A stretch of DNA of 64,000 nt, taken from NCBI GenBank assembly GCA_000092065.1, contig CP000601.1, one strand, 5' to 3'. The position numbers and the translations under genes were made by a program. This document shows, in pieces, positions 47,962 to 53,021 of this stretch. Numbering within the stretch: the first letter of the stretch is position 1; each line of letters starts with the position of its first letter. The DNA comes from Ostreococcus lucimarinus. Its lineage: Eukaryota. A model generated the notes under the pieces. That model was not told where the DNA came from. It did not search any database and worked only from the letters and a program-made list of their open reading frames with translations.

Positions 47962-48576
47962 CTAGCGAGGAGGCGCTGGGGAGTTTTCCAAAATCACTCC
48001 GCCGACCTCGACGCGAGAACCACGCCCTGTGATTATCGTGTTTCTAACATTGTCTGCTATTCTGGGATCCAGTCCTGCACCATCCGCGCACGTCACTCGA
48101 CTCGATCGCGTCTCTTCCGATCCAGCCGTTCTGAAATCTCCCCAATACTCCTTGTCCCCCGGTCCGTCCGCGGAGCCAAAGTTGACGTACACCGGACTGT
48201 CAAACAACTCTGGATACGTCGCCAGTAGCTCTCTCTCGGCGTAACGCAACGTATCTAACACCAACGGTAATTTTTGACGAAACACGACCGAACGAAGGGG
48301 CGCCGCCCATCGTATCCACCAAGCCTCCTTCGCGCTCACCTGACAAAACACGTGCAAGCCGTCCTCGCGCCACTCCGCGAGCACCTCGTCTCTGAGCAAT
48401 CTCGTGTACCATATCGACGTTTGATCGTCGTTGAACGCGTCGCCTACCGTGAGCGTCAAATTCCTCGTCACATCGTTGTGCGTCAGCGTGTAACGCCGCT
48501 GCAATAAAGACTCCGGTTCCACCCGCGTCGAGCTCGCGTCGAACGCCACCGACACTCTGTCCGGGTCAAACTTCAA
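47962..48576 (-). CDS. SGR: Stay-Green (SGR) family protein, putative Mg-dechelatase
   Basis: RRYTLTHNDVTRNLTLTVGDAF corresponds to plant SGR RTYTLTHSDITAKLTLAIS. LAEWREDGLHVFCQVS corresponds to VAEWKK..SLHVHCHIS, and YPELF to YPELQ. The track start is TTG and there is no in-frame ATG, so an upstream transit-peptide exon is likely. The land-plant Cys-rich C-terminal motif is absent. Confidence 0.65.
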   Translation of the reverse strand: MKFDPDRVSVAFDASSTRVEPESLLQRRYTLTHNDVTRNLTLTVGDAFNDDQTSIWYTRLLRDEVLAEWREDGLHVFCQVSAKEAWWIRWAAPLRSVVFRQKLPLVLDTLRYAERELLATYPELFDSPVYVNFGSADGPGDKEYWGDFRTAGSEETRSSRVTCADGAGLDPRIADNVRNTIITGRGSRVEVGGVILENSPAPPR

Positions 48577-49171
48577 GGCGTCGAAAACCGCGTTCGTCGT
48601 CGTCTGCGCGCGCGCGATCGCCGTCGGTCAGTGTCACGATTCCATCGAGTCGCACTCGCGCCTTTCTCGCGCGTCGCTCGCGGTTTTAGACGTCGCCGTC
48701 CCCCCCCATCGCGCGAAAACCGCGCCTCGGACGTCCCGTCCCGTCCCGATCGACGCGCGTCGCGCGCGCGTCGCGTCGCGTCGGTCGCCGCGCACCTTCC
48801 CCCGTCCGCGCCCCTTCGCCGGCCGTCCTCGCGCGCCGGGTCCCGGTCGCCGTCCGCTCGCGTCGCGCGTCGACGTCGACGTCGACGCCCCGCTCGCGCG
48901 CGCGCGCGTCGCGAGCGCCCTATCCAGCGCCATGGCGTCGACGGCGCGCGCGTCGCGTTCGCGCGTCGACGACGCGCGCGCGTCGACGACGCTCGCGACT
49001 CGTCGACGACGACGTCGACGACGACGACGCGCGTCGCTGTGCCGGGCGTCGTCGCGTCGTCGGATCGTCGTCTCGTCGTCGTCCCGCGGCGTCCCGCGCG
49101 TCCGCCTCGAGCGCGAGCGCGAGCGGTCGCGAGCGGTCGCGATCGGACGATGCGACCGATGGTGCGATTGA

Positions 49172-51037
49172 ATGGATACACACGGACCACACCGATCCCA
49201 TCGACGAGTCTCGACTCGAGAACGAGTCCCTCGACGCCCGACGCGCCCCGACCGACGTCACGCGATCCGATCCGCGCGCGGCGTCGTCGCGTCGGCGTCG
49301 TCGCGTCGGCTCGTCACAGCGCGCGTCCGGGACAGCGAGCGCTCGAACGCCCGAACGCGCGAAGCGCCCGAGACGGATCCGAACGCCACGAATCCGCGCC
49401 GAGCGATCGAGCCCGCCATGCGCACCGTCGCGCGCGCGTTCGCGACGACGACGACGTCGAGCGCGAGGTGTGATTATCGCCGTCGAGCGACGACGACGCG
49501 CGCGACGACGAGCGCGGTGCGCGCGGACGCGCGGCGCGCGCGATCGGGGAGGTATGCGATCGTTCCGCGATCGATCGAGGGCGAAGGGAACGCCGCGGTC
49601 GTCGAAAGAAGCGTCGAGGGCGAGGAGGGGGAGAAGATGATGTCCCTGGAGGCGAGACGCGAGGCGCTGAGGTTGCCGCGCCCGGACGTCGCGGCGCCGG
49701 GGATGGAGGATCCGTGGAACGATGAGAAGTGGCAAAAGGTGAAGTGGACGGTGTTTCGAGACGTGGCGTACGACCTCGGACCGTTCTTTGAGAAGCATCC
49801 GGGCGGGAACTGGTTGTTGAACCTCGCCATCGGTCGCGACTGCACGGCGCTCATGGAATCCTATCACTTGCGACCAGAGGTGGCGACGGCGCGCTTCAGG
49901 ATGTTACCCAAGCTCGAGGGGTTCCCGGTCGACGCCGTGGCGAAGTCACCGAGACCGAACGATTCGCCGCTGTACAACAACATCCGCAATCGCGTTCGCG
50001 AGGAACTTTTCCCGGAAGAAGGGAAGAACAAACACAGAATGGGTGGCGACCACGCGACGATAACGATTTTGTCTTTCGCCGCGTTTGCGTACGGTGTGTA
50101 CGCCACCATCCCGGGCTTTCTCTCGGGTTGCCTCCTTGGCTTAGCTGGTGCGTGGATCGGGCTCACGATTCAGCATTGCGCCAATCACGGGGCGATGTCA
50201 CCGTCGCCCGCCGTCAACGGCGTCCTCGGTTTGACGAACGATCTCATCGGCGGCTCGTCTTTGATGTGGCGATACCACCACCAGGTGAGCCACCACATTC
50301 ACTGCAACGACAATGCTATGGATCAAGACGTGTACACCGCCATGCCTCTCTTGCGTTTCGACGCTCGTCGTCCCAAGGCGTGGTACCACCGCTTCCAGCA
50401 CTGGTACATGTTCTTGGCCTTTCCGTTGTTGCAGGTGGCGTTCCAAGTCGGCGACATCGTCGGTTTGTTCACTCGCGATACCGAAGGCGCAAAGCTCCAC
50501 GGGGCGACCACTTGGGAACTTGCCACCGTAGTTATCGGCAAGTTTGTGCACTTCGGTTTGTTGGCTGCACCTTTGATGAGCCACGCGGCTTCCGCCGTCG
50601 TCGCCGGCATCGTCGGTTTCATGGCGTGCCAAGGAGTCGTCCTCGCGTGTACGTTCGCGGTGAGTCACAACGTGCCCGAGGCCAAACTCCCTGAAGATAC
50701 CGGTGGAGAGGCGTGGGAAAGAGATTGGGGCGTGCAGCAGTTGGTGACTAGCGCTGACTGGGGTGGAAAGATTGGAAACTTTTTCACCGGCGGTCTGAAC
50801 TTGCAAGTCGAGCATCACCTGTTCCCGGCGATTTGCTTTGTGCACTACCCCGCGATCGCGAAAATTGTCGCGGAAGAAGCGGCGAAGATGGGCATTCCTT
50901 ACTCGTCATACAGAACACTTCCCGGCATTTTCGTCGCGTTCTGGAAATTCGTCAGAGACATGGGCACGGCGGAGCAAATCGACGACGTTTTACTTCCGAA
51001 GTTCGCGAACCCGCAACTTTCGCCAGCCATCAATTAG
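49172..51037 (+). CDS. Front-end fatty-acid desaturase with N-terminal cytochrome b5 domain (delta4-desaturase-like) and an Arg/Thr-rich presequence
   Basis: The cyt b5 heme motif reads EKHPGGNWLLNLAIGRDCTALMESYH. Three His boxes are present (HCANHG, HHQVSHHIHCN, QVEHHLFP). The first ~150 aa look like a transit peptide. Confidence 0.8.
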   Translation: MDTHGPHRSHRRVSTRERVPRRPTRPDRRHAIRSARGVVASASSRRLVTARVRDSERSNARTREAPETDPNATNPRRAIEPAMRTVARAFATTTTSSARCDYRRRATTTRATTSAVRADARRARSGRYAIVPRSIEGEGNAAVVERSVEGEEGEKMMSLEARREALRLPRPDVAAPGMEDPWNDEKWQKVKWTVFRDVAYDLGPFFEKHPGGNWLLNLAIGRDCTALMESYHLRPEVATARFRMLPKLEGFPVDAVAKSPRPNDSPLYNNIRNRVREELFPEEGKNKHRMGGDHATITILSFAAFAYGVYATIPGFLSGCLLGLAGAWIGLTIQHCANHGAMSPSPAVNGVLGLTNDLIGGSSLMWRYHHQVSHHIHCNDNAMDQDVYTAMPLLRFDARRPKAWYHRFQHWYMFLAFPLLQVAFQVGDIVGLFTRDTEGAKLHGATTWELATVVIGKFVHFGLLAAPLMSHAASAVVAGIVGFMACQGVVLACTFAVSHNVPEAKLPEDTGGEAWERDWGVQQLVTSADWGGKIGNFFTGGLNLQVEHHLFPAICFVHYPAIAKIVAEEAAKMGIPYSSYRTLPGIFVAFWKFVRDMGTAEQIDDVLLPKFANPQLSPAIN

Positions 51038-51156
51038 AATTATAACTTACCTTACGCGCTTGTTGACTTCAAACGAGCAAACGACAGAAATACGATTATT
51101 GTGATATACTTACACCTCCGCCTCATCATTGTTTTGATCTAATTCTAACTTACAAA

Positions 51157-52191
51157 CTACACACGAATTCTCAAGTTGAGCAACTCTCGCTCGGCGCTCG
51201 TTCGATTAAACGTCACACTTTGTCCGATACTCACCGGCTCCGGGGGTGCACCACCCTCTTCGTATGCCTCGTAACTTCTTAAAGTCCCATCAGGACCGGC
51301 ATACGCGCCGTCGACGTAAGAATGGCAGTTGTGCAAACCGGCGTCTGAAAGCAGCTGCTTCGCCCACGCCGCGGAACTACTGCTTCGGCTATGCAACAAG
51401 ATGAGATTATCCGACGTCGGCTTGTGAAATCGGAACATCCGCACCCACTCTTCATCGTTCATATGCACTGCTTTGGGCAGATGATCCACCGGGACGTGCG
51501 TTGACCCCTCGAGTGTTCCGTAAAGCGCGCGCTCGTCAAACCTTCGAATGTCCAAAATCACTAGTCCCAGCGCATTGCCGTCGTCTCTCACCGTTTCCAG
51601 GAGAAGTAACACCGCGTCGAAGCTCAGAGCTCGATCTTTCCCTGATGAAAACACAGCGGGTTCGTCGAAGTGTGCTAGAGGTACCGCCGCGGCGAGTCCG
51701 CCGTCCACGATGGAGCACCGCGTGAATCCCAGGCTCGTCGCGAGCGCCGCGGCGTGCGACGAGCTATGCCCGTGCGTGCTCACAAAAATCATCGTCGTCC
51801 TTAAACTCGGCACGGGAATGTTTGGAAATCTCTTCTTCCACAGTGTGTTACGATTGCGCAACAAGTTCGCCAACTCTTCCGGTAAGATGTGCGTCACGGC
51901 GAGTCTGTCGCTCAGCTTCGTCACCGCCGTCGCCCCCCCGTCCTCGCTCTTCGGTCTGACGTCTAATAGCAAGTATTTCACCGGTTTCGTTTGAACCAAC
52001 ATCCAAAACGCTTTCGCACTCAGCACCCCGTACGTCTGTTTGTTCAATTTCACCGTCGGTTGCGAGCTCGACGTCGTTCGCTGTCTCGCTCGATCTCTGT
52101 GCTTGGCGCTTCGCAAGACGCGCACGGACCAGGCGATGAGAGACAGACACACGGCGGTGGTTAACGAACCGCCGACGTTGGTGACGTGCAT
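51157..52191 (-). CDS. Membrane-anchored protein with two rhodanese-like domains lacking the catalytic Cys
   Basis: An N-terminal TM (LTTAVCLSLIAWSV) is followed by rhodanese-like modules (LLDVRPKSE...THGHSSSHAA and ILDIRRFDERALYGTLEGSTHVP...LLHSRSSSSAAWAKQL). The active-site Cys is replaced by Ser/His in both. The ATG lies 15 nt inside the GTG track start. Confidence 0.6.
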   Translation of the reverse strand: MHVTNVGGSLTTAVCLSLIAWSVRVLRSAKHRDRARQRTTSSSQPTVKLNKQTYGVLSAKAFWMLVQTKPVKYLLLDVRPKSEDGGATAVTKLSDRLAVTHILPEELANLLRNRNTLWKKRFPNIPVPSLRTTMIFVSTHGHSSSHAAALATSLGFTRCSIVDGGLAAAVPLAHFDEPAVFSSGKDRALSFDAVLLLLETVRDDGNALGLVILDIRRFDERALYGTLEGSTHVPVDHLPKAVHMNDEEWVRMFRFHKPTSDNLILLHSRSSSSAAWAKQLLSDAGLHNCHSYVDGAYAGPDGTLRSYEAYEEGGAPPEPVSIGQSVTFNRTSAERELLNLRIRV

Positions 52192-53021
52192 GATATTCGT
52201 CCGCACGCGCGCCGCGCGCGTCCGTCTGCGGGCGCACCGCCGATCACGCGCGCGGTCGACGTGGACGCGCGTCGAGTCGATTTCGAACGAACGAACGCCA
52301 AAACGAACGCGCGTCGAGCGATTTCGTGGGCGTCTCGAGGGCGCGCAACCCTACGAAATCGTCGTCGAAAAATCACGCACTCAAAGACAATTTAGAACTA
52401 TCTGCAAACACGGTACGCGCGCGATAAACGCCGCGTCGGCCCCCGCGCGCCGCGCGCGCGAACGAAGCGACGTTCGTGGCGACCGTTGAAGCGCCGAACC
52501 AGAGCGCGAGACCGCGCGCGCGTCACAGCGCGCGGCGAAATTTGCGAAAGCGTCCACACGAACATGCTCTCGGTTTCGACGTCGTCGCGATCGCTCGCGA
52601 GCGCACCGACGGCGCGCCGAGGATGGCGTGGGCGTCGCGGCGGGAGCAGGTTAGAAACGGTTCGACGGGCGCAAATCGGCGTCGATCTCGTCGACGCGGC
52701 GAGAAACGGGTTGGAGACGTTCGTTCAAAGGGTACGTTATCGACAAGCGCGAGATTCGGACCTAAAATCGATCGGTGCGCGCCGACAGAGCGATGTCAAG
52801 AGTGGTTTTGTTGCCTCTCGCCGCACGCTCTCGGTGAAGCAAACGAGCGCAAACGCGACGAAGATTGAGGCTGACCGATTTATTTTCATTCGTAGGCATC
52901 GAAGGCGTTACCAATACTGCTTGGACACGACGATACTGTCGAAATCGAGCGGGAAAACGAGTCGTTAGACGCCGCGAAGACAAACTCGAGAACGCGAGCC
53001 GCAGAGCTCACCCAGGCGCGC

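Follow-up and report, generated by a model that had tools for sequence, protein, structure and literature searches.

A plastid-type cytochrome b5-fused front-end desaturase gene of Ostreococcus lucimarinus, probably of the CrD4FAD type, and a revised start for its protein

The DNA analysed here (the window) is a stretch of 64,000 nucleotides from Ostreococcus lucimarinus (contig CP000601.1 of GenBank assembly GCA_000092065.1), and the gene in question, on its plus strand, encodes a front-end fatty acid desaturase fused to a cytochrome b5 domain. An uninterrupted open reading frame (ORF) of 621 codons plus a stop codon occupies positions 49172-51037(+), and its protein matched the Pfam families Cyt-b5 (PF00173, E 9e-09) and FA_desaturase (PF00487, E 1e-33), both over the curated cut-offs. 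An initial annotation, made from the letters of the DNA, had read this ORF as a plastid-targeted, b5-fused, delta4-like front-end desaturase on the basis of four motifs, all of which were located in frame. The cytochrome b5-like heme-binding domain (Pfam core match at 49742..49879) carries the HPGG heme-ligand motif at 49796..49807 and, at 49865-49867, the His of ESYH, which is the expected second axial heme ligand. It is followed by a membrane fatty-acid desaturase domain with hydrophobic helices (50111..50911), which holds His box 1 HCANHG (HX3H, 50174..50191), His box 2 HHQVSHH (HX3HH, 50276..50296), and His box 3 QVEHH (QX2HH, 50804..50818), where Gln replaces the first His as the hallmark of front-end enzymes. 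The order of Cyt-b5 and FA_desaturase and the Gln in box 3 thus bear out the proposed front-end signature, and the Pfam matches and motifs in this ORF are far beyond chance.

Conservation was scored in an alignment of 45 homologues, with residues numbered on the 539-aa protein that, as argued below, the ORF most likely encodes. H127, P128, and G130 of HPGG and H150 of ESYH were invariant, as were all histidines of the three His boxes (H253 and H257, together with N256, in box 1; H287, H288, H292, and H293 in box 2; H466 and H467 in box 3), and Q463 of box 3 was near-invariant (at least 90% of the homologues). Comparison with the reference genome revealed that the protein read from Met 49640 is identical in 465/465 residues (100%) to XP_001422856.1 of O. 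lucimarinus CCE9901, i.e., residues 75-539 of the 539-aa protein equal the complete RefSeq model, which is annotated as "predicted protein" only. This identity marks the window as nuclear DNA of O. lucimarinus.

Three candidate starts were considered for this protein, namely 49172 (the longest ORF), 49418, and 49637/49640, where an ATGATG site (49637..49642) provides the start of the RefSeq model beginning MSLEARR. All of them fall in a stretch of ~1.1 kb (48600-49700) with 70-81% GC and CpG-rich tandem repeats of 2-17 nt (CGTCG, CGA, CGCGCGTCGACGACGCG, and others), in which ORFs of 99-315 codons are open on both strands and in several frames. An open frame within this stretch therefore carries no weight, and mechanical ORF calls are unreliable there. 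The first 82 codons of the long ORF (49172-49417) show the same character, with 70-73% GC and CpG tandem repeats, and all six frames are open across them. With CpG-rich sequence throughout 48.6-49.7 kb, GC content by codon position failed to place the start codon, and only the first 30 codons looked non-coding by this measure. The start was settled by alignment with three contigs of a sister clade of Ostreococcus (L001-L003), whose protein is 96% identical. Downstream of ATG 49418, the DNA identity was 91% with a single indel of 3 nt, compared with 66% identity and eight indels (5, 12, 1, 7, 3, 3, 8, and 2 nt) directly upstream of it. The ATG at 49418 is itself conserved in the sister clade, and the RefSeq ATGATG site reads AAT AAG ATT there, with no conserved Met. 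Moreover, environmental gene calls from the same or the sister species begin MRTVARAF or MRVVARAF (P0121, 538 aa; P0002, 540 aa), and in a variant of the same cluster (P0131) the DNA upstream is read in a different frame.

Because the break in identity and indels falls at ATG 49418, the ATG is conserved, and the environmental gene calls agree, the complete coding sequence most likely runs from 49418 to 51037 on the plus strand (539 aa plus stop, no intron), with coding constraint and in-frame indels starting exactly at this ATG. The start would accordingly lie 246 bases downstream of the one in the initial annotation, and the first 82 codons of the long ORF (49172..49417), divergent from the sister clade, are most likely not protein; they probably represent non-coding DNA such as a 5' untranslated region or a divergent promoter. 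By the same comparison, the RefSeq model XP_001422856.1 (465 aa) most likely takes an internal Met that is not conserved as its start, thereby omitting a presequence of 74 residues. Localisation predictions or cloning based on that model would miss the putative transit peptide, and cloning should use ATG 49418. Around the RefSeq start, a linker polymorphism was also observed at 49634-49645, with EKMMSLEA in the window, EKISLEA (one codon shorter) in other members of the same 90% cluster, and ENKISLEA in the sister clade.

The presequence (aa 1-74, 49418..49639) can be described by composition as a putative chloroplast transit peptide over its first ~45 aa followed by an acidic linker. Residues 1-45 consist of 53% Ser/Thr/Ala and include 12 Arg, 10 Thr, 10 Ala, and no Glu, with a net charge of +10, and residues 46-95 are acidic and run into the conserved PRPD...DPWND that starts the folded protein. 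The leader sequence was not conserved among orthologs, yet an extension was always present. In all clade members examined, HPGG lies at residue 84-156, compared with ~50 in the endoplasmic reticulum (ER) paralogue of the same genus, which corresponds to 35-105 extra residues before HPGG, and the O. lucimarinus protein is ~75 aa longer in this part. Both the composition of the leader and the consistent extension fit a chloroplast transit peptide, from which we infer plastid targeting. In the related O. tauri, chloroplast transit peptides were predicted for all desaturases except two others, D4p, the counterpart of the present protein, being included among those with a prediction (2020 plastid delta6 desaturase study). 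The ~150-aa Arg/Thr-rich leader of the initial annotation was therefore overstated: an extension of transit-peptide-like composition exists, but it is about half as long (~75-95 aa), only its first ~45 aa are rich in Arg, Thr, and Ala, and the first 82 codons counted in it are probably not protein.

An AlphaFold2 model built from the homologue alignment reached a mean predicted local distance difference test (pLDDT) score of 79 and a predicted template modelling (pTM) score of 0.78. The b5 and desaturase domains were modelled confidently, and residues 1-74, with pLDDT <50, were predicted to be disordered. Long helices at residues 211-256 and 322-417 lie around the His boxes, and hydrophobic 19-mers were found at the same places. 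A search of the Protein Data Bank (PDB) with a sequence profile from the 45 homologues matched b5 domains (best E 3e-10) and no desaturase domain, and Foldseek against the PDB returned remote matches only, i.e., desaturase-like subunits of Ycf2/Orf2971-FtsHi (17% identity), AlkB, and isolated b5 domains. Solved structures are thus uninformative on specificity. As a separate observation, the solved folds closest to the desaturase domain (PDB 8xqw_M and 8xks_K; 17% identity, E about 1e-4) come from subunits of the chloroplast import motor Ycf2/Orf2971-FtsHi of Chlamydomonas, and since these subunits match the desaturase domain, the import motor contains a membrane-desaturase-like protein.

For the phylogeny, a neighbour-joining tree with 100 bootstraps was computed, covering the homologues and, as outgroups, characterised enzymes transcribed from a supplementary alignment (PMC3877907) read by optical character recognition; these references are not free of errors and are missing the C-terminal block, which makes them adequate for clade placement and not for fine branch lengths. 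CrD4FAD, the plastid delta4 desaturase of Chlamydomonas reinhardtii, and a sphingolipid delta8 sequence were not part of this tree. The protein was placed among the Mamiellophyceae, which form a subclade within a pan-chlorophyte plastid clade; the Volvocales homologues and proteins with the name "fatty acyl delta4 desaturase" also belong to this larger clade. Bootstrap support was 100/100 for the plastid clade, for the Mamiellophyceae subclade, and for the split from the pair of ER C22-delta4 enzymes (XP_001415743.1 of O. lucimarinus and Ost809D4), the ER pair being the sister group of the pan-chlorophyte clade. Within Ostreococcus, orthologs were 96% (sister clade), 87-92% (O. tauri-like cluster), and at least 80% (O. 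mediterraneus) identical, and Bathycoccus together with two further clusters, one of them perhaps Micromonas, reached 68-79% in the database search and 77-81% in the trimmed alignment. Across the chlorophyte homologues, identity to the protein was 47-65% in the trimmed alignment, with 60-62% for those of Edaphochlamys, Volvox, and Pleodorina. A set of chlorophyte proteins in which two are called "fatty acyl delta4 desaturase" reached 57-65%. This name occurs among the matches from Haematococcus and Monoraphidium, the database search also gave proteins named "acyl-lipid (7-3)-desaturase", and cluster members were labelled delta-4 desaturase by the pipelines of the Joint Genome Institute.

Identity was far lower to the characterised enzymes of other branches, namely 43% to XP_001415743.1 and Ost809D4, 27-28% to Pavlova delta4, 24-25% to Isochrysis and Emiliania delta4, and 21-22% to the acyl-CoA delta6 enzymes OtD6, Ost809D6, and MpD6 on the outgroup branch. 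Two assignments were considered and rejected on these grounds: orthology with the ER C22 delta4 enzymes, given the 43% identity, the separate clade, and the conserved N-terminal extension, and membership of the Mamiellophyceae acyl-CoA delta6 group, given the 21-22% identity and the outgroup position. For the enzymes covered by this tree, the phylogeny agreed with the initial annotation, the protein standing in the green-algal plastid clade with Volvocales and apart from ER C22-delta4, haptophyte delta4, and acyl-CoA delta6 enzymes. The sphingolipid delta8 desaturase of O. tauri is a different gene (Ot15, CEG01739.1) and has been characterised separately.

The ortholog in O. tauri, CEG00114.1 (Ot13g01600), was labelled "D4p, Ot13.2" and regarded as a putative plastid delta4 desaturase in the 2020 plastid delta6 desaturase study, and it was treated as a plastidial delta4 desaturase ("p-delta4-Des"), with only transcript levels reported, in the 2021 temperature study. 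Quantitative PCR (qPCR) primers with an 84-bp amplicon have been given for O. tauri p-delta4-Des (PMC8018280 supplement); these matched the window at 50413-50432 with 4 mismatches and at 50477-50496 with 1, so that the counterpart of the amplicon (50413..50496, plus strand) spans exactly 84 bp.

Considering these results together, the gene is quite probably the O. lucimarinus ortholog of CrD4FAD-type plastid delta4 front-end desaturases (acyl-lipid (7-3)-desaturase), and in its protein a leader resembling a transit peptide precedes a cytochrome b5 domain, which is followed by a di-iron membrane desaturase domain bearing the three His boxes. Papers describing CrD4FAD report that this enzyme is located in the plastid and introduces a delta4 double bond into 16:3(7,10,13) at the sn-2 position of monogalactosyldiacylglycerol (MGDG), that its over-expression raises MGDG, and that its b5 domain is redox-active in vitro. 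The plastid location, electron path, substrate, and bond position proposed for the O. lucimarinus protein follow by analogy from orthology with CrD4FAD. The leader would direct import into the chloroplast and then be cleaved, and the fused b5 heme, with its ligands in HPGG and ESYH, would supply single electrons to the di-iron centre that the His boxes coordinate. With O2, two hydrogens would be removed between the carboxyl end and the delta7 bond of 16:3(7,10,13) at sn-2 of MGDG, and the expected product would be 16:4(4,7,10,13), the signature fatty acid of the thylakoid galactolipids of chlorophytes. The presence of 16:4n-3 in Ostreococcus, at 5% of the fatty acids in RCC809 and as reported for O. 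tauri (2021 temperature study), is in line with this proposal. The other front-end desaturases of O. tauri comprise an acyl-CoA delta6, two plastid delta6, a sphingolipid delta8, a delta5, and an ER delta4 enzyme, and because these are assigned to other steps, the gene type described here is left for 16:4.

Several points weigh against this assignment. The C. reinhardtii CrD4FAD sequence was not among the matches in database searches with the O. lucimarinus protein and with the Edaphochlamys homologue, nor did cluster look-ups of ten matches lacking a name bring it to light, and the putative orthology accordingly draws on published trees and on homologues from other Volvocales. The literature searched gave no activity, localisation, or transcript-start data for this protein or for any Mamiellophyceae ortholog. 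Furthermore, a clade member from Chlamydomonas sp. ICE-L is named as a chloroplast delta6 desaturase, and, of the Chromochloris homologues, CzFAD3A produces 16:1 delta4 and shows trace delta6 activity and CzFAD3B is a C18 delta6 desaturase. The caution of the initial annotation that regiospecificity cannot be read from sequence was justified in light of these Chromochloris enzymes, which show delta4 (C16) or delta6 (C18) activity. On balance, its reading of a plastid b5-fused delta4-type enzyme gains support from the motifs, the clade, and the O. tauri ortholog, with the bond position predicted by homology.

The same evidence bears on three other functions. A plastid C18 delta6 desaturase (18:2 to 18:3n-6 and 18:3 to 18:4n-3), instead of or in addition to a C16 delta4 enzyme, is unlikely. 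In either case the new bond would be placed at a distance of 12 carbons from the methyl end, three carbons ahead of the first existing double bond. The C18 activity of CzFAD3B and the trace delta6 activity of CzFAD3A speak for it, as do the name "chloroplast delta-6 fatty acid desaturase" given to a member of the same clade (P0046) and the richness of Ostreococcus in 18:4n-3. However, O. tauri has two demonstrated plastid delta6 enzymes, which belong to another front-end clade with a different His-box consensus (2020 study), and a maker of the delta4 bond of 16:4 would still be needed, for which the gene type described here is the only remaining plastid-type candidate; in addition, the database searches made gave a single ortholog cluster per Mamiellophyceae lineage. 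A leaderless ER C22 delta4 desaturase making docosahexaenoic acid (DHA), for which the RefSeq model would be the true protein, is the least probable of the three. XP_001422856.1 does start at 49640 without a presequence, and the nearest outgroup in the tree is the pair XP_001415743.1 and Ost809D4, but the characterised ER enzyme is a different gene with 43% identity, Met 49640 lacks conservation, in contrast to ATG 49418 and the coding constraint that follows it, and an N-terminal extension was found in every member of the plastid clade examined.

A plastid delta3 activity, alone or in addition, converting galactolipid 18:4(6,9,12,15) to 18:5(3,6,9,12,15) with the new bond placed three carbons ahead of the first existing one, as for 16:3, is very improbable for this gene. 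We know of no gene for the step from 18:4n-3 to 18:5n-3 in any organism. Labelling in Emiliania indicated that this step is a plastid desaturation on galactolipids (as reported in a cited paper), only seven front-end desaturases exist in O. tauri, none of which is assigned to it (2020 study), and the "(7-3)" logic of the family formally extends to "(6-3)". Nevertheless, Bathycoccus is without 18:5 (2021 temperature study) and yet has an ortholog of ~80% identity, Chlorophyceae bearing the ortholog are without 18:5 as well, and the O. tauri authors prefer plastid delta6 or delta5 desaturases as candidates (2021 temperature study); the substrate also differs in chain length and in distance from the carboxyl end. 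The more general idea that the enzyme obeys a rule of "three carbons before the first double bond", and would thereby also form 18:5n-3 from 18:4n-3 in those Mamiellophyceae that produce 18:5, is equally doubtful. The gene would matter more only if such a delta3 (18:5n-3) activity were also true, which the evidence makes unlikely.

With a CrD4FAD-type plastid delta4 desaturase as the preferred assignment, the contribution of this analysis is modest, consisting of a functional reading for a RefSeq "predicted protein" and a correction of its gene model. The gene type is already known, being present in the 2007 reference genome and having a sister-species ortholog named in the literature. The suggestion in the initial annotation that the enzyme is worth characterising therefore holds only insofar as no assayed member from the Mamiellophyceae was found, and loses force from the fact that the enzyme type has already been recognised. 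Its expected product, 16:4, ranks among the major acyl groups at sn-2 of Mamiellophyceae MGDG.

The desaturase gene is flanked by two genes on the opposite strand, a Staygreen-domain gene upstream and a rhodanese-domain gene downstream (51157-52206, minus), and the order Staygreen, desaturase, rhodanese is kept in contigs of the sister clade and of a more distant Ostreococcus (L001-L004). The desaturase and rhodanese genes stand tail-to-tail, and their 3' spacer (51038-51156, ~120 bp) has 42-48% GC, in contrast to the very GC-rich 5' spacer. On the other side, the Staygreen-domain ORF (47962-48576, minus) does not begin with an ATG; ATG 48933, which is in frame with it, opens a 99-codon ORF rich in Arg, Ala, Thr, and Gly (48634-48933, minus), with two stop codons between the two ORFs. 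This arrangement suggests that the Staygreen gene may possess a short in-frame intron and a first exon encoding a transit peptide, in which case a divergent spacer of ~480 bp would separate its start from the desaturase ATG.

Among known systems, the O. tauri p-delta4-Des is a direct ortholog sharing the same 84-bp amplicon span, and the cluster with 87-92% identity presumably represents O. tauri or a species close to it; the O. tauri-like protein has a shorter leader, with HPGG at residue 93 compared with 127 in O. lucimarinus. The Ostreococcus ER C22 delta4 desaturase, which converts 22:5n-3 to DHA in yeast, has similar boxes (QHTANHGG, WRYHH.VSHH, and QIEHH) and a similar heme-binding region (HPGG...GRD...ES.HLRPEV), but it differs in having no N-terminal extension (HPGG at ~residue 50) and in being encoded elsewhere in the genome. 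The haptophyte delta4 desaturases (Pavlova, Isochrysis, and Emiliania) and the Mamiellophyceae acyl-CoA delta6 desaturases are likewise b5-fusion front-end enzymes with a Q-type third box, and they form separate branches. CzFAD3A and CzFAD3B of Chromochloris zofingiensis have been reported as close homologues of CrD4FAD that carry a b5 domain at the N-terminus, and their assay in a cyanobacterial host illustrates that specificity diverges within the CrD4FAD family. The leaders of CrD4FAD and of the O. lucimarinus protein are unrelated in sequence, whereas CrD4FAD (CrFAD3; Zauner et al. 2012) of C. reinhardtii has the same architecture of leader, cytochrome b5 domain, and three-His-box desaturase domain, and the expected product, 16:4(4,7,10,13) on MGDG, occurs in both Chlamydomonas and Ostreococcus.

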